From the NCBI RefSeq assembly GCF_004010195.1, contig NW_025214498.1:1-44923 (forward strand): a stretch of 44,923 nt of DNA, given 5' to 3'. The position numbers were made by a program, and so were the translations under genes. This document shows, in pieces, positions 762 to 44,923 of the stretch (the stretch's first letter is position 1; each line of letters starts with the position of its first letter). The notes below the pieces were generated by a model. That model saw only the letters and a program-made list of their open reading frames with translations. It was not told the DNA's origin and did no database searches. Source of the DNA: Chiloscyllium plagiosum (taxonomy: Eukaryota).

Positions 762-1398
762 CCTGACAATGCTGTCACTTTTTAAATAAAATGTTATTTT
801 CTCCCTTCTTTTAGTAAGAGATCTTAAAGGCAAAACTTCTTACTGAAAACGGCTCAAGTAAATAACTTATGGGGCTTTTAGTGTTTTTAAATAAATAGCA
901 GTAACAGTGGCCAGCTGGCACAGACGAGCATTTCTAGTTTTTTTTTATTGTAGCGATAATAATCACCAGGTGCTTGGGGTCCCAGAACGGTTGTATGTTT
1001 CAGTAAATTATCCTTATCGGCTATTCTCTCTGGAACCTCACTTGATGCTGTTTCCTCCTGGATTGGCGAACTGTTTGCAAGAACGCATGCGTGAAAGTTC
1101 CTTTTTGCCAGGGGGGGTGTTTATGGGATGTTAGTATATTGGAACAGTTCATTAGTAGAAGGTACTGTATCCATTATTCAGTTAAGATTTCCAATAGTTA
1201 AATCATTCTAAATTCATCTTCATTTTTTACGGATTTTCATTAGAGTGTTTAAATATATTGTGCTATGCTTAATGGTGGGTGGTTTGAGTAGTTTGACATC
1301 TGGAACACCCATCTCACATCTACCTTTAAAATAAGGAAAGGTTGGCACCCAACCTACCTTCTTAAAATAGTATGAGGCAGCCTGGTTCGACCATAGCA
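762..1398 (+). repeat. 5' LTR of the Gypsy element (start approximate)
   Basis: Shares blocks with 4458-5072 (atgctgtttcctcctggattgg, cagtggccagct, ggtcccagaa, aaaataaggaaaggtt); ends in CA just before the PBS. Confidence 0.75.
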
Positions 1399-1401
1399 AA
1401 C

Positions 1402-1418
1402 TGGGGACTCTTGTCCGG
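1402..1418 (+). promoter_or_regulatory. Degenerate tRNA-Pro-like primer binding site (second copy ~2512-2528)
   Basis: tggggactcttgtccgg resembles the tRNA-Pro PBS TGGGGGCTCGTCCGGGAT and lies 3 nt after the LTR end. Confidence 0.6.
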
Positions 1419-1460
1419 TTCTAAATCAATATTACAAAATTAGGTTTAGAATTTGCAACC

Positions 1461-1690
1461 AGGCCATTCTCCCCAATAAGTCCACACCGATCCTCCGAGA
1501 AGAAACCTACACAGACCCATTCCTTTACCCTATTATTGCACATTTACCCCGACGAAGGCAACTAATCCACAGATCCATGAAAACTATGAACAATTTATCA
1601 TGGCCAATACACCTGATATGCACATCTTTGGATTGTGGGAGGAAACCAGAGAATCCAGAATAAGCTTATGCAGACACTGGAGAGTATGCA
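1461..1690 (-). mobile_element. HE1-type V-SINE fragment inserted in the Gypsy leader
   Basis: caatttatcatggccaatacacctgatatgcacatctttggattgtgggaggaaacc matches the reverse complement of the SINE copies at 34862-36110. Confidence 0.8.
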
Positions 1691-2570
1691 CCGGGAGACT
1701 ATTGGGTTCAAAGTTCGAGTATGGCAGTTGAAAGTGTCTTTTTTCTGGATGTTGAATTGGTTGGTTTAAACAGTATTTTGTGTATAAAGATTCAGTCACT
1801 AAGAGTTCTCTGGGTATGGAAAAATAAAGTTGGGGGTTTTACAAAAGGTAATGATGGCAAAGCTGTAGGAATTGACAGACAACCTGGAGTTGGGGTTGCG
1901 ATTGTCTGTGAGAAAATGAGAGATACTTACAGCTATAGCTCGGCAATTACGTTTAGTGTAACCGCCATCCGACTCTTTGGAAATGGCTGGAATTGAATTT
2001 CAAATGATGCTCTTTGAACATGAGAAGGAATTGAAAGAGTTTGAATTATGATGAAAAGTAGAAATAAAAGAAAGAGAAATTAAGAAGAAAGAGAGAAAAG
2101 GACAGAAGAAAATCAGAGAGTTTCAACTTAAAAAGTTAGCAATTAGAGAGGAAAGTTGACATAGAAGGCGGAGATGAAATCAGATGGTCGGCGGGATGAG
2201 GAGGATAGTGAGATTGAACAACCCTATTGTAACCAATTGCCTAACGGGGTTCTGCTTAAATGCATCCAGGCATTATCTAAATTTGATGGGAAGGATGGGG
2301 AAGCCTTTTGAATTTCATTTGAGAAAGTGGCTAAACAAATGCAGACGCCGGCGACCATGTGGATTTAGTTGATCCAAAGCTGATAGGTATTTGCATCCCT
2401 ATCGGACATCTGGAACACCCATCTCACATCTACCTTTAAAATAAGGAAAGGTTGGCACCCAACCTACCTTCTTAAAATAGTTTGAGGCAGCCTGGTTCGA
2501 CCATAGCAAACTGGGGACTCTTGTCCGGTTCTAAATTAATATTACAAAATTGGGTTTAGAATTTGCAACC

Positions 2571-2800
2571 AGGCCATTCTCCCCAACAAGTCCACACCGA
2601 TCCTCCGAGAAGAAACCTACACAGACCCATTCCTTTACCCTATTATTGCACATTTACCCCGACGAAGGCAACTAACCCACAGATCCCTGAAAACTATGAA
2701 CAATTTATCATGGCCAATACACCTGATATGCACATCGTTGGATTGTGGGAGGAAACCAGAGAATCCAGAATCAGCTCATGCAGACACTGGAGAGTATGCA
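2571..2800 (-). mobile_element. HE1-type V-SINE fragment (duplicated copy)
   Basis: Copy of 1461-1690 within the tandem duplication. Confidence 0.8.
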
Positions 2801-3649
2801 CAGGGAGACTATTGGGTTCAAAGTTCGAGTATGGTAGTTGAAAGTGTCTTTTTTCTGGATGTTGAATTCGGTTAGTTTAAACAGTATTTTGTGTATAAAG
2901 ATTCAGTTACTAAGAGTTCTCTGGGTGTGGAAAAGTAAAGTGGGGGTTTTACAAAAGGTAATGAAGGCAAAGCTGTAGGAATTGACAGACAACCTGGAGT
3001 TGGGGTTGCAATTGTCTGTGAGAAAATGAGAGATACTTACAGCTATAGCTCGGCAATTACGTTTAGTGGAACCGCCATCAGACTCTTTGGAAATGGCTGG
3101 AATTCAATTTCAAATGATACTCTTTGAACATGAGAAGGAATTGAAAGAGTTTGAATTATGATGAAAAGTAGAACTAAAAAAAGAGAAATTAAGAAGAAAG
3201 AGAGAAAAGGACAGAAGAAAATCAGAGAGTTTCAACTTAAAAAGTTAGCAATTAGAGAGGAAAGTTGACATAGAAGGCGGAGATGAAATCAGATGGTCGG
3301 CGGGATGAGGAGGATAGTGAGATTGAACAACCCTATTGTAACCAATTGCCTAACGGGGTTCTGCTTAAATGCATCCAGGCATTATCTAAATTTGCAGACG
3401 CCGGCGACCATGTGGATTTAGTTGATCCAAAGCTGATAGGTATTTGCATCCCTATCGGAGGAGGTATCTGGTCAGTATGGAGTGGTGAAGAAAGCCATTT
3501 GAAGTGCATATAAGCTTGTGCCAGAAACTGACAGACAACGTTACAAGAATCTAAAAGAGGGTCCCTGGTTAAACGCACATTGAGTTTGAAAGGATCAAAC
3601 AAAGTAATTTTGAAAGGCGAGTAAGTGTATTAAAAACAGAGCAAACCTA

Positions 3650-7694: not shown

Positions 7695-7814
7695 GACCAC
7701 AATGTTTTCTTTTATGCTGTTTGAGTGCACGGCAGTTTTTGTTGTATTTGAAGTAACCGTTAGAATTCTGAGTCATGCAAGCCAACAAGGTGTGAGGAGA
7801 AAGTGGGGATTACC

Positions 7815-8480
7815 GATGCTGAAGATCAGAGTCGAAGAATGTGGTGCTGGAAAAGCATAGTCAGACAGCATACTAAGAGCAGATAAATCGATGTTTTGGA
7901 CATAAGCCCTTCATCAGGAATGAAGCTTATGGGCCAAGGGGGCTGAGAGATAAATGAGAAGAGGGTGCGGCAGTGGAGAGGTAGCTGTGATTGCGATAGG
8001 TAGATGAAGGTGCGGTTGAACGTGATAGGTGATGAAGGGAGACAGAACGCCTCATCTACTGCATCCATTAAACCCAATGTGGTCTTCTCTACATTGGCGA
8101 GGCAGGGGGTCAACTTGTAGATCATTTCAGGGAACATCTCTGGGACAGCCACATTGAACTACACCATCGCCTAGTGGGTGAGCACTTTAACTCCCCTTCC
8201 CACTCTGCCAAGGACATGGGCCTGCTCCATCGCCGAACCCGAGCCACCAGAAGCCTGGAGGAAGAAAGCGTCCTCTTCTGCCTTGGGACCCTCCAACCAC
8301 AGGGGATCATAGTTGATTTCCCCATTTCCCCATTTCCCCTAATCCCACCTGATCCCACTCCAACCTTCCAAATCAGCACCGCCCTTTTGAACGTTCCTGT
8401 GTGTCCACCTTCCTTCCTATCAATCTAGTCCACCCTCCTCACCGAATATCACATTCAACCCCACCTTCATCTACCAATTA
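7815..8480 (+). mobile_element. Penelope-like element fragment: inverted pLTR plus GIY-YIG C-terminus and 3' UTR
   Basis: GEHFNSPSHSAKDM..LEEESVLFCLGTLQPQGIIVDF; ~7999-8027 is the reverse complement of ~8447-8475 (inverted pLTR). Confidence 0.8.
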
Positions 8481-8499
8481 GATGAAAGGAGGCAGCTGA

Positions 8500-10008
8500 G
8501 AAAAATGCCAAGTGGTGCAGTGAGCCAATGGATTCAGAGAAATGTAGGACCCAGCAAAGGATGGCCAAGAAACTGAGAAGAAAATCAAAAAGAGAAAAAG
8601 CGTGCAAACAAATGAAAAACATAAAGACTGCTAAAAAGCGTCTATCAATGTATGAAAAAAAATAAAAACAAGGTCAAATGTGGAACAGTTGGGTGTGCGT
8701 TCAGGATAATTTATTGCAGAGAACAGAGAAATCGCGGGGAAAAGAAACAGTTTATTTGCCTCTATCTTCATGGAAGAATGTCCAGAAATTCTTCCAGAAA
8801 TACCAAGTGACCCTGGGACTTGTGTAAGTAAAATCTAAGATCATTCTTATCAGTGTTGGGGTCATCTTTGAAAAGAAAGCTGGATTGAGTATTTATAAAT
8901 CTGACAGACAAGATGCACATCAGACACGAATTTCAGAGGAAGCAGCAATAGACATGTTGATTGCCTCACGGATTTTCACTTTATTTTCCGACACACTCCC
9001 GCAAGGCATTTAGCCAATCTGGATAAGGCAAAGGTTATAAATATTACCCAACAGTTTAAGAAAGGCTGAAGGTGGAGAGTGGTGACCTACAGACCAGTTA
9101 TCTTGTCATCCACAGTCAGGTATCTGTTGGACTCGATTACAAAGAACATGCTACTAGATATTTAGAAGGTAATAACATAACTGGGGAGTGTGGTAATTTA
9201 CCGATGAAAGGAAAACCAGAAGTGGCAAACATTGTCTGGAATGGTTTGAAGATGATTCTTGTGGACATAGGCAATGATGGACCATTGGATAGCGTATAGG
9301 TGGATATTCATGAGCTTTTTTTAAAGAACTCACACAGTAAGCTCATAAAAAAAAAGGTAAACCGAGAGGTATTGGGAATAACATATGCAAATGGGAAAGT
9401 AAAAATTAGGTTTACATTCATGTGAATGTAATTGGAAGATAGAGGATGCCGTGCACCAGTTGCATCGAGCGTTGGTAAGATTAAACTTATAGTATTGTGT
9501 ATCATTCGGAGTCCCAATCGAAGAAAGAATATACTGACTACAGAAGAACTGCAAAAGGTATTCTACAAATAAATCCCTAACTTGGCAAGCTTGTCTGACG
9601 GGGAAACTCAGCCTGTAACCTCGAGTTTCAAAACATGAGAGCTGATTGTCGTACATCTTAGAAACATCGAAAGGACTGAATAACAGAGGGACATGGAGAA
9701 GTACAAGTAGGCGAGATAAGGGAGAATCCCACGATATTCTCAACGGACAAGTCGAACAGAATAATCAGCAAACAGTTAGTGTCCATTCGAAACCAAAGGG
9801 GCAATCTTTGTGTCAAGCTGGAGAACATTGATGGATTGTTACATGAGACCTTCACATCTATTTTACTTGGGAGAAGGAGGAGGCAGGTATAGAATTCAAG
9901 AAGATGGACTGGGGAGCTCTTGAAGAGATTGATTTAAAATACGAGATTGGATTTGAGGTTTTGTTCTGTACAAATTTGGACCAATCTCCATGTCTGAATG
10001 AGTTGTAT
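8500..10008 (+). mobile_element. Highly degenerate CR1 ORF2 remnant
   Basis: QQRMAKKL..NIKTAK..KVKCG (cf. QQRITKKEI..KLAKNMK..KTKIGPL in the 29815-32469 element); decayed RT motifs downstream. Confidence 0.6.
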
Positions 10009-11182: not shown

Positions 11183-13501
11183 CAGTAACCACAATGTATT
11201 GGTTTTCTTTTATGCTGTTTGAGTGCACGGCAGTTTTTGTTGTATTTGAAGTAACCGTTAGAATTCTGAGTCATGCAAGCCAACAAGGTGTGAGGAGAAA
11301 GTGGGGATTACCGATGCTGAAGATCAGAGTCGAAGAATGTGGTGCTGGAAAAGCACAGTGAGGCAGCATACTAAGACCAGATAAATCGATGTTTTGGGCA
11401 TAAACCCTTCATCAGGAATGAAGCTTATGGGCCAAGGGGGCTGAGAGATAAATGAGAAGAGGGTGCGGCAGGGGAGAGGTAGCTGTGACTGTGATAGGTA
11501 GATGAAGGTGGGGTTGAAAGTGATAGGTGATGAAGGGAGACAGAACGCCTCATCTACTGCATCCATTAAACCCAATGTGGTCTTCTCTACATTGGCGAGG
11601 CAGGGGGTCAACTTGTAGATCATTTCAGGGAACATCTCTGGGACAGCCACCTTGAACTACAACATCGCCTAGTGGGTGAGCACTTTAACTGCCCTTCCCA
11701 CTCTGCCAAGGACATGGGCCTCCTCCATCGCCGAACCCGAGCCACCAGAAGCCTGGAGGAAGAAAGCGTTCTCTTCTGCCTTGGGACCCTCCAACCACAG
11801 GGGATCATAGTTGATTTCCCCATTTCCCCATTTCCCCTAATTCCACCTGATCCCACTCCAACCTTCCAAATCAGCACCGCCCTTTTGAACGTACCTGTGT
11901 GTCCACCTTCCTTCCTATCAATCTAGTCCACCCTCCTCTCCGAATATCACATTCAACCCCACCTTCATCTACCAATTAGATGAAAGGAGGCAGCTGAGAA
12001 AAATGTCAAGTGGTGCAGTGAACCAATGGATTCAGAGAAATGTAGGACCCAGCAAAGGATGGCCAAGAAACTGAGAAGAAAATCAAAAAGAGAAAAAGCG
12101 TACAAACGAAAGAAAAACATAAAGACTGCTAAAAATCGTTTGTCAATGTATGAAAAAAATAAAAACAAGGTCAAATGTGGAACAGTTGGGTGTGCGTTCA
12201 GGATAATTTATTAGAGAGAACAGAGAAATCGCAGGGAAAAGAAACAGTTTATTTGCCTCTATTTTCATGGAAGAATGTCCAGAAATTCTTCCAGAAATAC
12301 CAAGTGACCCTGGGACTTGTGTAAGTAAAATCTAAGATCATTCTTATCAGTGTTGGGGTCATCTTTGAAAAAAAAGCTGGATTGAGTATTTATAAATCTG
12401 ACAGACTAGATGCACAGCATACACGAATTTCAGAGGAAGCAGCAATAGACATGTTGATTGCATCACGGATTTTCACTTTATTTTTCGACACATTCCAGCA
12501 AGGCATTTAGCCAATCTGGGTAAGGCAAAGGTTATAAATATTACCCAACAGTTTAAGAAAGGATGAATTTGGAGAGTGGTGAACTACAGACCAGTAATCT
12601 TGTCATCCACAGTCAGGTATCTGTTGGATTCGATTACAAAGAACATGCTACTAGATATTTAGAAGGTAAAAACATAACTGGGGAGTGTGGTAATTTACCG
12701 ATGAAAGGAAAACCAGAAGTGGCAAACATTGTCTGGAATGGTTTGACGATGATTCTTGTGGACACAGGCAATGAAGAACTAATGGATAACGTATAGTTGG
12801 ATATTCATGAGCTTTTTTTAAAGAACTCACACAGTAAGCTCATAAAAAAAAGTTAAAGCGAGAGGTATTGAGAAGAACATATGCAAATGGGAAAATAAAA
12901 ATTAGGTTTACATTCATGCGAATGTAATTGGAAGATAGAGGACGCCGTGCACCAGTTGCATCGAGTGTTGGTAAGATTAAACTTAGAGTATTGTGTATCG
13001 TTCGGAATCCCAATCTAAGAAAGAATATACTGACTACAGAAGAACTGCAAAAGGTATTCTACAAATTAATCCCTAACTTGGCAAGCTTGTCTGACGGGGA
13101 AACTCAGCCTGTAACCTCGAGTTTCAAAACATGAGAGGTGATTGTAGTGAATCTGAGAAACATTGAAAGGACTGAATAACAGGGAAATGAAGAATTACAA
13201 GTAGGCGAGATTTGGGAGTATCCCACGATATCCTACACGGAGAAGTCGAACAGAATAATCAGCAAACAGTTAGTGTCCATTAGAAACCAAAGGGGAAATC
13301 TGTGTGTCAAGCTGGAGAACATTGATGGATTGTTACATGAGGCCTTCACATCTATTTTACTTGGGAGAAGGAGGAGGCAGGTACAGAATTCAAAAAGATG
13401 GGCTGGAAAACTCTTGAACAGATTGATGTAAAATACGGCAGAGATCTGAGGCTTTGTTCTGTATAAATTTAAACCAATCTCCATGCCTGAATGAGTTGTA
13501 T
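11183..13501 (+). repeat. ~2.3-kb direct duplication, copy 2 (PLE fragment 11313-11975 and CR1 remnant)
   Basis: Collinear with 7691-10008. Confidence 0.95.
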
Positions 13502-14355
13502 CACAGGCGGCTGTTGGGGTCAAGGGAGGAAAGACCCTGACTGAATATTTTAATTAGAATCTGACCATAGGGGAGGTGCCAGAGAACTGGAGAACTGCTA
13601 ATACGATTCCACTTCAAGGTAAGGGTGGGACAGATATACCAGGTTACTATAGACGAGCGAGTATTAGATCACTGTTAAGGAAACTACTGGAGAAAATAGG
13701 GAAGGAGAACATTGAACTCCAATCAGAGTCGCAAGGTTTAATCAGGGATAATCATCATGGCTTTATCAGGAGGAAGTCACATCCAATGGATTTGATTGAA
13801 TTAGTTTGAGGAGGTCTATTGTTTAGTTTTGTAGGAAGGCATTTTGCAAATTTCCAGCTGGGAACTGAAAAATAATGTAAAATCTCACAATATAAAGGAT
13901 AACTTGAAAAGTTACAAGGAAAATTGTCTTAGTGGCAGGAGGCAGAGGGTGGTGGGAGAAGGTTGTTTGAGCAACTGGAGACCAGTGTCCCCTGGTGTAC
14001 CACAGGGATCAGTGCTGTGTCCCTTATTGTTTGTGTTATTCATAAAAAAAAATAGATGTGAATGTGGAGGGGGCTCCGTGGAGAGTGGGGAAGGTGTAAT
14101 AAGTAAGTGTACATTTGACATAAAGATTGACCGGTTGGTTCGCAGTGAGAAGGAAGGTCTTAAGTTCCAGGAAGGTGCAGATGAAATGGTCAGATGGTCA
14201 GATCAATGGCAGATGGAATGTAAACCTGATAAATATGAGGTGATGCACTTTGGGAGATGGAACCAGGCAGGGGAGGACTCAATGAATGGCAGCACACTGG
14301 GAAGTTCAGATTGTGCTTCTCCACACATCCCTGAATGTGACTGGACAGGTTAATG

Positions 14356-14554
14356 CTTAAAAATGTGTTGCTGGAAAAGCGCAGCAGGTCAGGCAGCATC
14401 AAAGGAGCAGGAGAATCGACGTTTCGGGCAGTTTCCTGAAGAAGGGCTGATGCCCAAAACGTCGATTCTCCTGCTCCTTTGATGCTGCCTGACCTGCTGC
14501 GCTTTTCTAGCAACACATTTTTTAAGCTCTGATCTCCAGCATCTGCACTTTCTG
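14356..14554 (+). mobile_element. Fold-back Penelope pLTR mini-insertion with 15-bp TSD
   Basis: Inverted arms ~14355-14430 and ~14451-14527; flanked by ctggacaggttaatg (14341-14355) and ctggacagggtaatg (14555-14569). Confidence 0.85.
14436..14463 (+). ncRNA. Minimal hammerhead ribozyme motif, G12A-mutated
   Basis: CTGAAGA-A-GGGC-TGAT-GCCC-AAAA-CGTC (GAAA changed to AAAA). Confidence 0.55.
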
Positions 14555-15149
14555 CTGGACAGGGTAATGGACTAGTTAAGAATTGGATCTTGGGTGTAGC
14601 GTTTCCTAATCAGGGCATAGATTATAAGAGCAATACAGGGCTTTGGTTCGGCCAAAATGGAATACTGTATGTTGCTCTGGGAGCCACATTCCAGGAAGGA
14701 TGTGATTGTACTGGAGAGGGTGCAGAGGTGATTCACCAGGATGTTCCCTGGAATGGAGCATATCAGCTATGGAGAGAGGCTGGATAAGAGAAGCAGAGAA
14801 GGCTGAGGGATCCGTGATTTAGAAGGATAAGATTATAAGCGACACGGACAGGGTGGATAGCCAGCAGCTGTTCCTTTTAGTGAGAGGGTCAAGAACAAAG
14901 GAGCACACTTTTAAAGTGAAGAGTTTGAGGTTCGGAGATGATTTAAACATTTTTTCACCTCGAGATGTGGTGTTCTGGAATTACTTCATGAGAGGGGAAT
15001 TATCACGAGTAACCTCACAATCGTTAAAAAGTACTTGGACGAGAACTTGGAAGTGTCATAACATTCCAGGCTATGGGCCTGGTGAAGGAATGTGGACGAG
15101 TATAGATCGTGCTGCATTTCTGTTGGCAGAGTCTATGCTCCTGTGAGTG

Positions 15150-25287: not shown

Positions 25288-26850
25288 AACCAAGTTCGAA
25301 ATCACAGAACACCAGGTTATAGACCAACACGTTCATTTGGAAGCACTAGCTTTCAGAGCGCTGCTCCTTCATCAGGTGGTTGTGTCGGACACAGAATTTA
25401 TAACTAAAGTTTACAGTGTGATTTAACTGAAAGTTTATCATGTAAAAGTCCTGGATTGTTTGTTAAATCTCTCATCTCTTAGAATGAGCATGTTGGTTTC
25501 TGTTCTTTCAGATGTCACTTCCACAACTTTCTTAAAGTTACATTCTCAAGTGAACTTTAACAATAGGTGACATGTATAAGGCAGTCTGTACCCCAAGTTT
25601 CAGACTGATGCTAATCTCAAGAAGGGATTTACAGAATCTTGCATGGATTGATGCAGTTTTTGAGCAAAATAAAATGTAATACCACAAGTGCAAATTCACC
25701 CCACAAACTTGTATGTGAGTTTGTGGCTGTGGCTGTGTGTGTGTGATGGGAGGTTATGTGTCTCTGTGAGAAAGTATTTGTGAGTGTGGCAGTGTTTGTG
25801 TGACCGTATGAAAGTGGGTTTATGTATGACAGAGGGTCTGCAAGAGTTTGTTTGCGTGTGTGTGTGTGTGTGTGGAGTGCAGTGGGGTCACTGAAGAGTG
25901 ACATGAACTCAAGGTTTCGTTTGAGACCATACTAATGTGTACCAATACCGAACTTATCTATCAGCCTCTGCTCAGCCACTTCTCGCTGCTGCCTGCCCTG
26001 AAGTCCGCCTTAGAGAATACTCACCCAAAGATGTGAGGGGTCGAATGTCCCGGATAGCTGAAGTATTCTCCGACTGGATGGGAACCCTCTTGTCTGTTGA
26101 TTGCTGTGTTGTGCCCATTCATCCATTGCTCTAGCCTCTGCTCAGTTTTCCCCAATGTACCATGCCTCAGGGCATCCTTGCCTGCAACGTATGAGATCGA
26201 CAACATTGGCCGAGTCACTTGAGTACCTGCCACGGACATGGTGGGAGGTGTCCCACACGTAATGGTGGTATTCATGTCCACACTCTGACACGTGTTACAG
26301 CATCTATCATGACAAGGTTACATGGTGTTGTCCTGAAAGCTGGGCAGTTCGCTGCGAATACTGATCTTTTTGAGGTTTGGCATTGTTTAAATGCAAGCAG
26401 TGGAGATGTGGGGCAGGTCCTGGCGAGGTGCTTAACCTCATTGATAATGTGTTGCAGGTCATGAAGAACATGGCATAGTTTTTTCAGCTCCTGGGAAGTA
26501 CCGGACAACGAAGGGTACCCTGTCGGTTGCAGCTTGTACCTATCTCTTGAGGAGGTCATTACAGTTTTGTACTCTGGCAGGTCGGCACAGATGGTCAATG
26601 GATTGAGCATCGTGCCCCATTCTTATGGGGGCGTCCATGAGTATTGTTAACCTCCAGCCATGTTCCTCTTCATCTGAACAGATGCTGTGTGTGCGCAGGA
26701 CTCGTCCGTAAGGGGTGGCAGTTTCACTATATTTCAGGTGGAAGCTGGGGCAGTGTAGCATCATGAGGTTATCTGTGGGTTTGCGGCAGAGTAATGTGCT
26801 GAGGTGTTCATCCTTGATGGAGATGCTTGTGTCCAAGAATGAGACAGATA
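25288..26850 (-). mobile_element. 5'-truncated Penelope-like element (RT thumb, GIY-YIG, pLTR)
   Basis: FLDTSISIKDEHLSTLLCRKPTDNLMMLH..PYGRVLRTHSICSDEE; SANVVDLIRCRQGCPEAWYIGKT (GIY-YIG); hammerhead motif in the 3' pLTR. Confidence 0.88.
25347..25375 (-). ncRNA. Minimal hammerhead ribozyme (PLE family 2), intact core
   Basis: cac-CTGATGA-A-GGAGC-AGC-GCTCT-GAAA-GCTA-gtg: helix I cac/gtg, helix II, palindromic AGCT helix III. Confidence 0.7.
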
Positions 26851-28322
26851 ATAGAGATAAAGTGTTGGAAAGGGCTATAATAGAAAGGATTTATGATCAT
26901 CTCAAAATGATAAAAACAATTAGGGATAGTCAACATGATTTTGTGAAGGGTCGGTTGTGCATCATAAATCTTACTGACTTCTTTGAAAAAGTAACCACAC
27001 AGGTGGATATGGGTAAAATGGTTGATGTGGTAACTATGGTTTTTCGTCAGGCATTTAATAAGGTTCGCCACAGTAGGCTATTGCACAAAGTACAGAGGCA
27101 TGGGATTGAAGGTGATTAAGCGGTTTGGATAAGAAATTGGCGAGCTTAAAGAGTGACAGAGGGTGGTGTCTGAAGGGTAATGTTCATCCTGGAGTTCAGG
27201 TACCACAAGGATCTGTTTTGGGTCCACTGCTGTTTGACATTTTTATAAATGACCTAGATGAGGGCATAGAAGGATAGATTAGTAAATTTGCACGTAACAC
27301 TCAGGTCAGTAGAATTGTGGATAGTAGTGAAGGATGTTGTGGGTGACAGAGTGACATGGATAAGCTGCAGAGTGGGCTGAGAGGTGGCAAATGGAGTTCA
27401 ATAGGGAAAAATCTGAAGTGATTCACTTTGGAAGGAGTAACAGGAATGCAGAATACTGGGCTAATGATAGGATTCTTGGTCGTGGAGATGAGCAGAGAGA
27501 TCTCGATACTCATGTACATAGATCCTTGAAAGTTGCCACCCAGTTTGATAAGGTTGTTAAGAAGGCGTATGTAGTATTAGCTTTTATTTGTATAGGGAAC
27601 TATGAGGTCATGCTGCAGCTGTACAACACTCTGGTGCGGCCACATTTGGAGTATTGCTTATAGTTCTGGTCACTGCATTATAGGAAGGATGTGGAAGCCT
27701 TAGAAAGTTTAAAGAGGAGAGTAACTAGGGTGTTGCCTGGTATAGATGGAAGGTCTTACCAGGAAAGGCTGAAAGACTAGAGGCTGTTTGCATTGGAGAG
27801 AAGAAGGTTGAGAGTTGACTTATTTGAGACATATAAGATAATCAAAGGGTTAGATAAGGCAGACAACGAAAGCCTTTTTCCTCGTATGGTGATGGCTACC
27901 ACGAGAGGACATACCTTTAAATTGAGGGTGACAGACATAGGACAGATGTCAGAGGTAGTTTCTTTACTCAGAGAGTAGTAAGGATACAGAACACACTGCC
28001 TGCAACAGAAATGGACTCACCAACTTTCATGTCATTCAAGTAATCATTAGATAGGCATATGGACAAAAACGGAATAGTATTTGTTAGATGGGCTTCAGAT
28101 TGGTTTAACGAGCCAGCGCAACATTGAGAGCTGAAAGGCCTGTACTACGTTGGAATGTTCGATGTTAACAAACACCCACGCTTAAGTAAATTGCTGTAGT
28201 CAAGTTTTCTCTTAACCATGTTTAACCATTTGGTACACACACTGATCCAAGACACTTTTGATTTTTACAATTACGTAAGTAGTTCAGAATCCTGTTTGGT
28301 CAGACCTTTCCTTCCACATTTT

Positions 28323-28929: not shown

Positions 28930-29815
28930 AAAAGTGAGGACTGCAGATGCTGGAAATCATAGTCTAGATTAGAGTGGTGCTGGAAAAGCACAGCCAGCAG
29001 TTGAGGAGCTGGAAGATCGACGTTTCGGAATGAAGGCAGGGAACCTCCGGGGTGGAGAGGTAAATGGGAGGGCGGTTGGGCTGAGGAGAATGTAACAAAG
29101 AGTACAATAGGTGGATGGGGGTGGGGATGGAGGTGATAGGTCAGAGAGGAGTGTGGAGTCGATAGGTGGGAAGGAAGATTGGCAGGTAGAACAGGTTGGG
29201 ACTGGGGTAAGGTGGAAAGAGGGGAAATGAGGAAACTGTTGAAGTCCACATNNNNNNNNNNNNNNNNNNNNNNNNNNNNNNNNNNNNNNNNNNNNNNNNN
29301 NNNNNNNNNNNNNNNNNNNNNNNNNNNNNNNNNNNNNNNNNNNNNNNNNNNNNNNNNNNNNNNNNNNNNNNNNNNNNNNNNNNNNNNNNNNNNNNAAAAG
29401 TGAGGACTGCAGATGCTGGAAATCAGAGTCTAGATTAGAGTGGTGCTGGAAAAGCACAGCCAGCAGTTGAGGAGCTGGAAGATCGACGTTTCGGAATGAA
29501 GGCGGGGAACCTCTGGGATGGAGAGGTAAATGGGAGGGCGGTTGCCTGGGGAGAATGTAACAAAGAGTACAATAGTTGGATGGGGGTGGGGATGGAGGTG
29601 ATAGGTCATAGAGGAGTGTGGAGCCGATAGGTGGGAAGGAACATTGTCAGGTAGAGCAGGTTGGGACTGGGGTAAGGTGGAGACAGGGGAAATGAGGAAA
29701 CTGGTGAAGTCCACATTGATGCCCTGGGGTTGAAGTGTTCTGAGGTGGAAGATGAGTGTTCTTCCTCCAGGCATCGGGTGGTGTGGGAGCGGCGGTGAAA
29801 GAGACCCAGGAACTC
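28930..29815 (-). mobile_element. Two tandem PLE pLTR/GIY-YIG 3' fragments either side of a gap
   Basis: aaaagtgaggactgcagatgctggaaatc..gtggtgctggaaaagcacagc repeated at 28930 and 29396; LIFHLRTLQPQGINVDF on the minus strand. Confidence 0.8.
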
Positions 29816-30504
29816 TCAATTCCCTCTCAGCCTTCTAAACTCAAGTGTACACAATCCCAGTCGCTTCAATCTTTCAGCATAAGATAGTCCTGTCATTCCG
29901 GGAATTGACCTCGTGAACCTACGCTGCACTCCCTCAATAATCAGAATGTTTTTCCTCAAATTTGGAGACCACACAATATTCCAGTTGTGGTCTCACCGGG
30001 ATCCTGTACAGCTGCAGAAGAACCTCTTTGCTTCTATACTCAATTCCTCTTGTTATGAAGGCCAGCATGCTATTATCCTACTTCACTACCTGCTGTACCT
30101 GCATGCTTACCTTCATTGACTGATGTACAAGAACACCCAGATCTCTTTGTCCTGCCCCTTTAACTAACTTGTCTCAATTTAGGTAGTAATCTGCCTTCCT
30201 GTTCTTGCCACCGAAGTGGTAACCACACATTTATCCACATTAAACTGTATCTGCCATGCATCCATCCACTCAGCCAGCCTGTCCAGGTCACCCTGTATTC
30301 TCGTAACATCCTCCTCACGTTTCACCCTGACACCCAGCTTTGTGTCATTCGCAAATTTGCTAATATTACTTTTAATATCTCCATCTATATCATTAATGTA
30401 CATTATAAAAAGCTGCGGTCCCAGCACTGATCCCTGTGGCACAACACTGGTCACCTCCTGCCATTCCAAAAGGGAGTCGTTTATCACTACTCTTTTTTTC
30501 CTGT

Positions 30505-30734
30505 ATCTGGATTAGTGGTGCTGGAAGAGCACAGCAGTTCAGGCAGAATCCGAGGAGCAGTAAAATCCGTGTTTCGGGCAAAAGCCCTTCATCAGGAACA
30601 CCAGGTATTCCTGATGAAGGGCTTTTGCCCGAAACGTCGATTTGACTGTCCTCAGACGCTGCCTAAACTGCTGTGCTCTTCCAGCACCACTAATCCAGAA
30701 TCTGGTTTCCACCTTCTGCAGTCATTGTTTTTAC
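30505..30734 (+). mobile_element. Fold-back Penelope pLTR mini-insertion with 13-bp TSD
   Basis: Arms ~30506-30598 and ~30608-30699; TSD ctttttttcctgt (30492-30504) and ctttgtttcctgt (30735-30747); interrupts CR1 at RKQR|V. Confidence 0.9.
30611..30638 (+). ncRNA. Minimal hammerhead ribozyme (PLE family 1), intact core
   Basis: CTGATGA-A-GGGC-TTTT-GCCC-GAAA-CGTC; all core nucleotides present, palindromic ACGT helix III, GUC cleavage triplet. Confidence 0.75.
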
Positions 30735-33249
30735 CTTTGTTTCCTGTCAGCCAACCAATTTTCAATACATGTCAGTATTTTGCCCCTAATACCATGTGCC
30801 CTAATTTTACTAACTAACTTCCTATGTGGGACTTTATCAAAGGCTTTCTGAAAGTCCAGGTATACTACATCCACTGGATCTCCCTTGTCCAACTTCAGAG
30901 TTACATCCTCAAAAGATAACAGCAAATTATTCAAGCATAACTTCCCCTTCATAAATCCATGCTGATTCTGACCTATCCTCTTACTGCTATCCAGATGTGT
31001 TGTAATTTCGTCCTTTATAATTGACTCCAGTATTTTTCACACCACTGTGGTCAGACTAACTGGTCTATAATTCTCTGTTTTCTCTCTCCCTCCTTTCTTA
31101 AAAAGTGGGACAACATTAGCCAACCTCCAATCCTCATTGGACAGAGATCACCAACGCATCCACGATTTCTCGAGCCACCTCCTTCAGTACCCTGGGATGT
31201 ACACCATCTGGCCCCGGGGACTTATCAGCCTTCAGACCTAACAGTCTCTCCAACATCATTTCCTGCCTAATATAAACTCCCTTCATTTCTGGTCCTTCAG
31301 TCACTATTGAATCTGGGAGATTGCTCGTGTCTTCCTCAGTGAAGACAGATCTAATGTGCCAATTCAACTCTTCTGCCACTTCTTTGTTCCCCGTAATAAA
31401 GTCACCCGTTTCTGTCTCCAAGGGCCCAATTTTAGTCTTAACCATTTTTTTGCCTTTCACATACCTAAAAAAATCCTTTACTATCCTCCTTCATATTTTT
31501 GGCCAGTTTACCTTCGTACCTTATTTTTTCTTTGCATATTTCCTTTTTAGTTATCCTCTGTTGTTCTTTAAAAGCTTCCGAATCCTCCGATTTCCCACTC
31601 ATCTTTGCTATGTTATACATTTTCCCGTTTGTCTTTATATGGTCAATAACTTCCCTCATCAGCCACGGCCTCCGCTGCCTCCCCTTAGGATCTTTCTTCC
31701 TGTTTGAAATGAACTGATCCTGCATCTTCTGCATTATACCCAGAAATACCTGCCATTGTTGTTCCACTGCCATCCCTGCCAGGATATTGTACCCATTGAA
31801 CTTTGGCCAGCTCCTCCCTCATAGCTCCATAGATCCCCTTATTCAACTGAAATATTGTCACTTCCGATTGTACCTTTCCCCTTTCAAACTGCAGATTAAA
31901 GCTTATTGTATTATGGTCACTACCTCCTAATGGCTCATTTATTTTGAGGTGCCTGATCAAATCCGGTTTGTTGCACAACACCAGATCCAGAATTGCTTTC
32001 TCCCTGGTCGGCTCCAGCACAAGAAACCATCTCGGAGGCACTCCACAAATTCCTTTCTTTGGGTCCAGTACCATCCTGGTTCTCCCAGTCTACCTGCATC
32101 TCGAAATCCCCCGTAACAACTGTAGTAATATCTTTGCGACAGGCCAATTTCAGCTCCTTATTCAACTTACACACTACATCCAGGCTACTGTTTGGGGGCC
32201 TGTAGATAACTCCTATTAGGGTCTTTCTACCCTTAGAATTTCTCAGCTCTATCCATACTGACTCTACATCCTCTGATTCAAAGTCCCCCCGTGCAAGGGA
32301 CTGAATATCATTCCTTACCAACAGGGCCACCCCACCCCCTCTGTCAGTCAGTCTGTCCTTATGATAGCACGGAAAGCCTTGCATATTCATTCCCAGGCCC
32401 TGTCCACTTTAAGCTGCGTCTCAGTTATCCACACAACATCGCAACTGCCAATTTCCAAATGAGCCTCAANNNNNNNNNNNNNNNNNNNNNNNNNNNNNNN
32501 NNNNNNNNNNNNNNNNNNNNNNNNNNNNNNNNNNNNNNNNNNNNNNNNNNNNNNNNNNNNNNNNNNNNNNNNNNNNNNNNNNNNNNNNNNNNNNNNNNNN
32601 NNNNNNNNNNNNNNNNNNNNNNNNNNNNNNNNNNNNNNNNNNNNNNNNNNNNNNNNNNNNNNNNNNNNNNNNNNNNNNNNNNNNNNNNNNNNNNNNNNNN
32701 NNNNNNNNNNNNNNNNNNNNNNNNNNNNNNNNNNNNNNNNNNNNNNNNNNNNNNNNNNNNNNNNNNNNNNNNNNNNNNNNNNNNNNNNNNNNNNNNNNNN
32801 NNNNNNNNNNNNNNNNNNNNNNNNNNNNNNNNNNNNNNNNNNNNNNNNNNNNNNNNNNNNNNNNNNNNNNNNNNNNNNNNNNNNNNNNNNNNNNNNNNNN
32901 NNNNNNNNNNNNNNNNNNNNNNNNNNNNNNNNNNNNNNNNNNNNNNNNNNNNNNNNNNNNNNNNNNNNNNNNNNNNNNNNNNNNNNNNNNNNNNNNNNNN
33001 NNNNNNNNNNNNNNNNNNNNNNNNNNNNNNNNNNNNNNNNNNNNNNNNNNNNNNNNNNNNNNNNNNNNNNNNNNNNNNNNNNNNNNNNNNNNNNNNNNNN
33101 NNNNNNNNNNNNNNNNNNNNNNNNNNNNNNNNNNNNNNNNNNNNNNNNNNNNNNNNNNNNNNNNNNNNNNNNNNNNNNNNNNNNNNNNNNNNNNNNNNNN
33201 NNNNNNNNNNNNNNNNNNNNNNNNNNNNNNNNNNNNNNNNNNNNNNNNN

Positions 33250-38009: not shown

Positions 38010-38660
38010 GTGAGTTTTGAGAGATTTGTAGTTCATGTTGATAATAGGCATGTAAGTTAGCTCACTGAGCTGGAAGGCTTATTTTTATTTTGTTGGTTGG
38101 TTTGTGGGCTACCATGGTGCCAAGAGGTCTGAGAAGTCTGGTAGTCATTTCCAACACATTAAAACAGCCGCTAATGAACTTGAAAGGCCCTATACCGACA
38201 ACAAGCAAAACTAATGTCATTTACAAAATACCGTGCAAGGACTGTAACAAACACTACATTAGACAAACAGGCAGAAAATTAGCCACCAGGATACATGAAC
38301 ATCACCTGGCCACAAAATGACATGAACCACTCTCACCAGAATACTTACAAACAGATGAAGAAGGACACCACTTTGAGTGGGACAACACATCCATCCTAGG
38401 TCAAGCCAAATATTTACAAAAGAGTTCCTAGAGCATGGCATTCCAACAGGAACTCTACCGACAAACATATTGAGTCGTATCCCACCGCCTGAGAAGAAGA
38501 ACAGGAAATGACATCAGCAGTCCATGGAAACGTGAACACATCAACAGAAAGCAGGTCATAACACCATCGCTTCACCGGAGGTTCACTGATTATGTTACCC
38601 AGCATGGTGACAAAATGTCTGGAAATGAACCTTCCAGCTCACTGAGCAAACTTACATCCA
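38010..38660 (+). mobile_element. Intronic 5'-truncated Penelope-like element (GIY-YIG + pLTR, inverted 5' piece), 10-bp TSD
   Basis: KTNVIYKIPCKDCNKHYIRQTGRKLATRIHEH; TSD gtttatgaaa at 38000-38009 and 38661-38670; gctcactgagctggaagg inverted to ccttccagctcactgagc. Confidence 0.9.
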
Positions 38661-38703
38661 GTTTATGAAAACATTAACAGATATCACAACCCTGTTTTTA
38701 CAG

Positions 38704-39318
38704 TCAACCTTGTGGCTATTGTGGTCCTATCACGGGGTAAGTGTGGTCTCTCTGAATGTATCTCGTACCACCTGTTGGCCATGGCAGGAGCTGATCTCGC
38801 TGTAATGGTGACTGATGTGCTTCTACACCGCATTAATAATATGCATTTCCCAATTAGTTTCTTGTTTTTAACTCCTGTTTGCTCTCTCAGACATGTTCTG
38901 TACTCTGTGTCTATTAACTGCTGTGTATTGTTTACAGTAGCTTTTACATTTGATAGATGTGCAGCTTATAGAAAAAAATAAAGTGCGCAGAGAACTTTGG
39001 AACAGAGACAGAAATGGCTGTGATCCCGAAATGAAGAACCGGAGAAATTCTATGATTTTATTGTTTGCAATATCAGCCAACTTCGTACTGTTATGGATGA
39101 CAAACCTTGTGCATTCATTGACCTGGCAATTGGTGAATTTTAATTACCAAAACAAACATTTTAGTGCACCAGTTTACATTGTTCAGCAGGTTGGATACAT
39201 GCTACAGATTCTCAGTTCATCAACAAACACATGCATCTGTGGACTAACCCAAAGGAAATTCAGATCAGAGTTAAAACGTGGTATCAAATATCTCTTCACT
39301 AAATGGCAAATGTTTTAG
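38704..39318 (+). CDS. GPCR coding exon 2 (TM1-TM3, then frameshifted TM6-TM7-H8); disrupted
   Basis: cctgtttttacag|TCAACC acceptor; ORFs 38712-38981 and 38950-39318 are two halves of one 7TM protein in different frames. Confidence 0.65.
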
Positions 39319-44779: not shown

Positions 44780-44923
44780 TCAGAATCCCTGGATTCTGGA
44801 TTAGTGGTGCTGAAAGAGCACAGCAGTTCAGGCAGCATCCGAGGAGCAGTAATATCGACGTTTCGGGCATAATCCCTTCATCAGGAATACAGGCAGAGAG
44901 GAGAAAGGGTGGAGAGATAAATG
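44780..44923 (-). mobile_element. PLE family 1 pLTR running off the window edge
   Basis: tctggattagtggtgctgaaagagcacagcagttcaggcag, same family as 30505-30734. Confidence 0.85.
44857..44884 (-). ncRNA. Minimal hammerhead ribozyme (PLE family 1), intact core with 3-bp helix II
   Basis: CTGATGA-A-GGG-ATTATG-CCC-GAAA-CGTC. Confidence 0.62.

Follow-up and report, generated by a model that had tools for sequence, protein, structure and literature searches.

The closest described counterparts of the motif considered here are the minimal hammerhead ribozymes (min-HHRs) of the pseudo-LTRs (pLTRs) of metazoan Penelope elements (PLEs), which are abundant in fish, coelacanth, frog and reptiles; in the available text of the study that reports them, monomers showed no cleavage and dimers low cleavage (Cervera and De la Pena 2014, PMC4209133). 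In the accessible part of a study of an Anolis PLE, the ribozyme cleaved only with the element's protein, which cuts and extends both strands, while two internal reverse transcription start sites bound the tail and uncut RNA is used (PMC11167929). Insertion units of EN+ PLEs comprise, as far as the available portions of two other papers go, an inverted 5'-truncated pLTR, a 30-40 bp tail and a TSD (Arkhipova et al. 2013, PMC3846280; Craig et al. 2021, PMC8557442). Retrozymes are reported in one chondrichthyan species in the part of the preprint at hand (Li et al. 2026, bioRxiv 10.64898/2026.07.22.740005). Sharks did not appear among the terms searched in part of the PMC4209133 supplement, and a shark-directed literature search, with most subscription journals and Repbase/Dfam outside its coverage, returned no paper devoted to shark PLE hammerheads. 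The motif described below, its setting in a PLE terminal repeat and the layout of inverted arm plus tail are all published already.

The window is the whole stretch of DNA that was analysed, 44,923 nucleotides of Chiloscyllium plagiosum contig NW_025214498.1. The best explanation of the hammerhead at 30611-30638, held at a probability of roughly 85%, is that it represents the minimal hammerhead of an abundant PLE terminal repeat, caught in one arm of a 230-bp, tailed, TSD-flanked insertion, and that it is probably silent, since its antisense arm is predicted to pair with it in read-through RNA. The motif itself, a minimal type I hammerhead, can be read directly from the sequence. C3 to A9 is CTGATGA (30611-30617), followed by an extra nucleotide, A30618; helix II has 4 bp (GGGC/GCCC, 30619-22 with 30627-30, including the G10.1-C11.1 pair G30619-C30630) and a TTTT loop; GAA lies at 30631-33, a palindromic ACGT replaces helix III (30634-37, 15.1-16.1), and C17 is 30638, which places the predicted scissile bond at 30638/30639. 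The CUGANGA...GAAA...NUH core is complete, with all positions intact. Helix I consists of 2 contiguous bp (30609-10 with 30639-40), then a T/T mismatch, then one A-T pair, and this shortness, relative to at least 3 bp in the available PLE consensus, is the motif's only departure from that consensus. The initial annotation had given the full core, 4-bp helix II, extra A, palindromic ACGT, GUC site and helix I of about 2 bp, and the sequence agrees on each. An extended distal helix I was dismissed, its pairing being broken in the 30609-30640 copy and not common to the other subfamily.

The motif is far above chance. A descriptor search, which the same annotation had proposed, recovered it as one of three loci in the window matching a strict min-HHR descriptor, 30611 (+), 44857-44884 (-) and 25347-25375 (-), and any such match arose in only 2 of 300 dinucleotide shuffles. 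A looser pattern likewise gave 3 matches against 0.35 expected, a number reached in 1 of 100 shuffles. Among the 10 Rfam matches at E<=5 no hammerhead family appeared; all were miRNA or lncRNA models below gathering score, and the miRNA matches were dismissed as reflecting hairpin shape only.

The immediate surroundings of the motif define what it is. It sits in the right arm of a single head-to-head insertion of 230 bp (30505-30734), in which an inverted arm, a direct arm and a 35-nt tail succeed one another between the copies of a 13-bp TSD (Table 1). The palindrome measures 194 nt, and its arms (30506-30602 / 30604-30699) are identical at 87 of 97 positions, the 10 differences showing no compensation. 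All three features of an EN+ PLE insertion unit are thereby present at 30505-30734, namely an inverted truncated pLTR together with a direct one, a tail at one end, and a TSD. The insertion lies within the reverse transcriptase of a decayed LINE, presumably of CR1 type, and separates Pfam RVT_1 profile positions 20-106 from positions 107-193. Both flanking RT pieces share one reading frame, insertion and a single TSD copy together come to 243 nt, and a weak Exo_endo_phos match lies upstream. Within 30300-31000 there is no direct repeat of the motif and the arms are head-to-head; the head-to-tail tandem of a retrozyme-like locus is absent.

Table 1. Coordinates of the hammerhead motif, the insertion that carries it, the host element and a second head-to-head insertion (window positions)
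Feature	Position	Strand	Evidence or remark
Left TSD copy	30492..30504	+	12/13 identical to 30735-30747
Inverted 5'-truncated pLTR arm, without tail, with dead hammerhead, antisense of the intact one	30506..30602	-	87/97 identity; inverted repeats I1, I2
Hammerhead of inverted arm	30566..30595	-	G16.2>A, U16.1>C, C17>G; no NUH triplet
One-base palindrome centre	30603..30603	.	Inverted repeat I2, 1 nt between arms
Direct 5'-truncated pLTR arm, starting 7 nt upstream of C3	30604..30699	+	Inverted repeats, family alignment
Minimal type I hammerhead motif	30609..30640	+	Direct reading, descriptor scans, consensus in the available supplement of PMC4209133
PLE tail, 35 nt, direct arm only	30700..30734	+	Family alignment; related copies carry the same 3' end
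Right TSD copy	30735..30747	+	13 bp, 1 mismatch with left copy
Host: decayed LINE (APE endonuclease and RT), RT domain split by the insertion	30179..32408	-	Pfam
Another head-to-head pLTR insertion in a LINE RT fragment, tailed and flanked by a 15-bp TSD	14341-14569		Direct arm G12>A

The assignment of the repeat to a PLE pLTR, made in the initial annotation, is supported by a homologous terminal sequence found 3' of a GIY-YIG C-terminus on the same strand (29405-29756) and by fit to the consensus in the available supplement of PMC4209133. The position of the pLTR is known by homology only, at 75% identity over 98 nt, the related terminus following the EN C-terminus at 29655-29756 (-). For the EN fragment at 8072-8425, two of 116 candidates proved to be homologous proteins, from Chiloscyllium punctatum (64%) and Rhincodon typus (47%); in the homolog P0002 the GIY-YIG match lies above the cut-off and the RVT_1 match below it. 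Pfam assigned no family to 5 of the 11 window translations, the GIY-YIG fragments included, and these were identified only via homologs. A cysteine motif, seen by eye, lies between RT and EN in P0002, and such a motif in the RT-EN linker is named as a clade feature in the available part of PMC8557442. On this evidence from the homolog, Neptune seems a likelier clade than Poseidon; the locus itself has no ORF. Scanning metagenomes with a 20-nt anchor from the pLTR returned 15 loci; none extended past about the pattern, and all were discarded as chance matches. A sigma-70 promoter scan was set aside as irrelevant to a vertebrate.

Further members of the family occur in the window; of its nine family arms, two retain the catalytic core and three start 4-7 nt upstream of C3. 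The insertion at 14341-14569 has an inverted arm that ends inside helix II and a palindrome centre differing from that of 30505-30734, and the two palindromes represent different subfamilies. All decayed copies listed in the initial annotation exist (14436-14463, ~7888-7916, ~11386-11415 and ~30568-30595), with the amendment that two entries lose their independence: the last is the antisense arm of the 30505-30734 insertion and hence not a separate copy, and those at ~7888 and ~11386 represent one event, since both fall within a 2.3-kb duplication (7704-10008 / 11202-13501, 95% identical, beside an N gap). At 7810-8475 and 11300-11970, pLTR and tail (-) are joined to a GIY-YIG fragment (+) in an arrangement resembling a 5' inversion; in the range tried, the insertion at 7.8-8.5 kb showed no TSD. 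The copy at 44857-44884 (-), annotated as the same motif, is indeed there without being identical, as its helix II has one mismatch and its loop differs. It belongs to a family copy at 44780-44923 (-) with intact core and no tail, cut by the window end and perhaps serving as inverted arm to a longer element outside it.

Several copies had been overlooked in that annotation, including those at 28939-29028 and 29405-29494, in both of which the core lacks its 5' half and helix II is mostly gone, and the left arm of the 14.4-kb palindrome. Two 95%-identical PLE 3' ends at 28930-29756 (-) flank an N gap and are possibly one locus assembled twice. Likewise overlooked was an intact minimal hammerhead of a different family at 25347-25375 (-), with a 3-bp helix I, a 5-bp helix II, an AGCT palindrome and A as H17, located ~660 bp downstream of a distant RT-EN fragment (26039-26878, 24-26% identical to P0001/P0002). 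Its prospects of activity are better than those of the 30611-30638 copy. Elsewhere in the window, two adjoining ORFs with hydrophobic stretches at 38646-39318 (+) look like what we take to be a broken G-protein-coupled receptor gene, and 1295-3394 is a tandem duplication of ~990 bp at 97% identity.

Activity of the 30611-30638 copy appears unlikely from its predicted folding. In nearest-neighbour secondary-structure models, which ignore core tertiary contacts and proteins, the full + strand insertion RNA reaches an MFE of -156.7 kcal/mol (z -20.6; 0 of 200 shuffles as stable) in a hairpin of ~97 bp that is predicted on either strand (-176.0 on the - strand, where the hairpin's own hammerhead is dead). 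In this context the hammerhead-compatible fold is 40.6 kcal/mol worse, the probability of helix II is ~0, and the five core positions sampled (C3, G5, G8, G12 and A14) are predicted to pair with the antisense arm at probabilities of at least 0.997. Even in the direct arm alone the hammerhead-compatible fold is modelled as 5.3 kcal/mol worse, the arm favouring an inactive hairpin that extends helix II by pairing 30612-16 with 30635-39, and a modelled active dimer comes to -13.3 against -24.6 for two ground-state monomers. No further intact motif for dimer formation was found nearby on this strand: the adjoining copy is antisense and dead, and the sole other + strand family copy found in the window lies 16 kb away and carries G12>A. 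The suggestion in the initial annotation that this copy could still self-cleave is thus disfavoured by an upstream antisense arm predicted to pair the core and by the lack of a same-strand partner in the vicinity.

The block imposed by the hairpin depends on transcription starting upstream of the insertion, given that the antisense arm is transcribed first in + strand read-through RNA. For starts at 30595 or later the predicted folding penalty falls to 5-7 kcal/mol, and for starts at 30604-30607 to only ~5. It is here that continued self-cleavage would find its opening, in a transcript beginning at the head of the right arm, without the antisense arm, and acting as a trans dimer or with the PLE protein. 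The intact core positions are compatible with such a scenario, as are the 3 of 9 window arms with starts 4-7 nt upstream of C3 and the loose ends of DNA contigs at 30606-30608, which could match an RNA start, and protein-assisted cleavage is published for a related element in the accessible part of PMC11167929. Family RNA is also present: in run X21, 1403 of 12,955,460 records aligned to the family, only 136 of them at >=99% likeness. The scenario is nonetheless improbable. Helix I has 2 bp where the available published consensus has at least 3, and the arm alone prefers the inactive hairpin. The X21 reads run in both orientations (335 versus 532 over helix II), and 658 of them continue from 30640-30643 into pLTR sequence and therefore cross the scissile bond uncut, in what is, as a family-level polyA single-cell library, a weak test. 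The initial annotation had looked to RNA ends at 30638 as a sign of cleavage; no pile-up of ends is listed in X21, a library type that shows native ends poorly.

The broader behaviour of the family was assessed from the reads of 4 of 24 listed runs aligned to 30600-30800 at 82% likeness, a filter that favours young copies, from an organism that may be the window's species or a relative (the best run contains 0.46 of the window's words). Two DNA runs yielded 20,976 and 33,230 aligned family records, and the family is consequently very abundant in the runs' organism. Among the listed read pieces none spans 30600-30800, so the 30505-30734 locus itself was not seen in these runs. Within the motif, the non-CpG differences among the variants listed are at N7 (16.6 / 18.2%) and in loop II (2-23%), positions that a hammerhead leaves free, and A15.1 varies at 0.1% in DNA reads. 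Under the 82% filter, and in what is possibly a relative, this pattern supports constraint on the core in parent elements. The remaining variation among those listed consists of CpG changes, with G12>A at 11.7/11.7%, C15.2>T at 13.4/12.6%, G16.2>A at 16.2/14.7%, C17>T at 10.4/9.7% and G1.1>A at 9.1/8.8% in the two DNA runs. These transitions at the core are the pattern to be expected of unselected copies; the CpG o/e of the window is 0.39. If the positions are independent, all five CpGs are retained in 0.52-0.54 of family sequence, and an intact core is accordingly unremarkable, being kept at these positions in about half of it. None of the five changes private to the right arm falls within the 34-nt motif (P=0.11), and selection on the core of this copy was dismissed given that value and that the copy was picked for being intact. 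A separate observation is A15.1>C at 30634, present in 84 of 536 RNA reads of one orientation in run X21 and in ~0.1% of DNA depth, which probably derives from one expressed dead copy elsewhere.

The DNA loose ends at 30606-30608 are heterogeneous, with agreement of 0.30-0.38 and a median of 104-255 nt, compared with 0.74-0.80 and 16-19 nt for loose ends at 30640-30648. They suggest that many family copies begin near the core, a reading confounded by the aligned stretch itself, which reached only ~5 nt into family sequence ahead of the motif. A bolder proposal would make the point 4-12 nt upstream of the core, at which both arms and many copies start, the true 5' end of a short, internally promoted pLTR RNA; the right arm would then be transcribed alone, and stubs of this kind would supply ~130-nt hammerhead RNAs cleaving as trans dimers or with the PLE protein. 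It is a long shot. If true, no natural reservoir of working minimal ribozymes would be larger than shark genomes, and the start of the PLE template RNA would be pinned down. Contigs of a shark run show head-to-tail joints at the 30699 boundary as well. Contigs in runs X1 and X3 contain joints of 30641-30643 to 30605-30609, forming head-to-tail hammerhead tandems with 3-11 letters between units and a period of ~40-46 nt, and other contigs join 30699 back to 30606. By their sequence these are natural dimer-competent, mini-retrozyme-like arrangements outside the window, and they constitute a more useful lead than the 30505-30734 locus.

Other accounts of the palindrome have to be set against the insertion-unit reading. 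Two palindromes with TSDs within 45 kb, together with opposite-strand joints in DNA contigs and in 4 RNA reads, could indicate a non-autonomous mobile unit, MITE-like or a hairpin SINE, that is copied whole. This is very unlikely given that the two palindromes differ in subfamily and in centre, that one arm of the 14.4-kb palindrome ends inside helix II, that the opposite-strand joints fall at differing places (30602/30693, 30605/30649 and 30607/30650), and that the tail is one-sided, as in ordinary PLE insertion units. The very stable hairpin of ~97 bp predicted on either strand, and the existence of fold-back family RNA (4 reads with 4 starts), might instead point to a hairpin kept as a source of dsRNA or small RNAs directed against the PLE family. 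Maintenance of that kind sits poorly with 10 of 97 arm differences lacking compensation, with Rfam miRNA matches that are below gathering score and reflect hairpin shape alone, and with the absence of locus-specific RNA from the runs aligned, and it deserves even less credence. Finally, the draft has 7 N gaps, near-identical duplications lie beside gaps, and no listed read piece spans the locus, all of which would fit an assembly or library fold-back artefact. The probability of this is close to negligible: the arms differ at 10 of 97 positions, the TSD copies differ by one mismatch, the tail is one-sided, the host is in frame on both sides and no N lies within 1 kb.

The preferred reading, a decayed PLE insertion unit with a masked hammerhead, lends itself to a plausible course of events. 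The PLE protein would have cut both DNA strands ~13 nt apart, and reverse transcription would have been primed on uncut RNA at two start sites bounding the tail, 30734 and 30699. Both cDNAs would have ended just past the hammerhead, 6-7 nt beyond C3, and would then have been joined head to head; two such cDNAs would give exactly the 30505-30734 structure with its TSD. Snap-back (self-primed) copying of one cDNA, self-priming being discussed in the available part of Arkhipova et al. (PMC3846280), would be an alternative origin leading to the same picture. The stub would since have decayed neutrally, its arms now 10% diverged, and the core would owe its survival to chance. A parent element that is active probably uses the motif in the way published for PLEs, through ACGT-mediated dimers, through assistance by the PLE protein, or through both. 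As a single locus it is of little significance, and few copies are less favourably placed for activity; its value is in illustrating PLE insertions copied through an uncut hammerhead and ending at two points 35 nt apart, behaviour demonstrated in vitro with the Anolis element.

Comparison with described systems, each drawn from the parts of the sources available, places the locus among known arrangements while marking its peculiarities. It shares with the min-HHRs of PMC4209133 the core boxes, the extra base after A9, the G10.1-C11.1 pair and the palindromic 15.2-16.2, and most published copies likewise stand alone within truncated PLEs. In Fig. S3 of that article, the row for Acropora Neptune also has a 4-bp helix II opening with GGGC and CG at 15.2-16.2. 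The 2-bp helix I differs from the consensus, the published rows with 2 bp being Drosophila, Culex and Oikopleura. Dual min-HHRs on opposite strands are published too, whereas here the opposite-strand partner directly adjoins the motif, which is consequently masked. With EN+ PLE insertion units the locus has in common the head-to-head inverted arm, the one-sided 35-nt tail and the TSD, and it differs in being the smallest form, with no ORF left; TSDs in the window are 13 and 15 bp, compared with 8-10 bp in rotifer (PMC3846280, PMC8557442). In the Poseidon element PAc of Anolis (Frangieh et al. 2024, PMC11167929), the hammerhead similarly lies ~60-100 nt upstream of two tail-defining end points, insertions are copied through an uncut hammerhead and RNA-seq ends are absent from the cleavage site; the cysteine motif of the shark homolog P0002, however, suggests Neptune rather than Poseidon. 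Non-LTR retrozymes (Cervera and De la Pena 2020, PMC7229834; Li et al. 2026, bioRxiv 10.64898/2026.07.22.740005) are, like this locus, short, non-coding and PLE-related and carry a type I hammerhead, but they are head-to-tail and able to form dimers, whereas 30505-30734 is head-to-head with a single intact motif.
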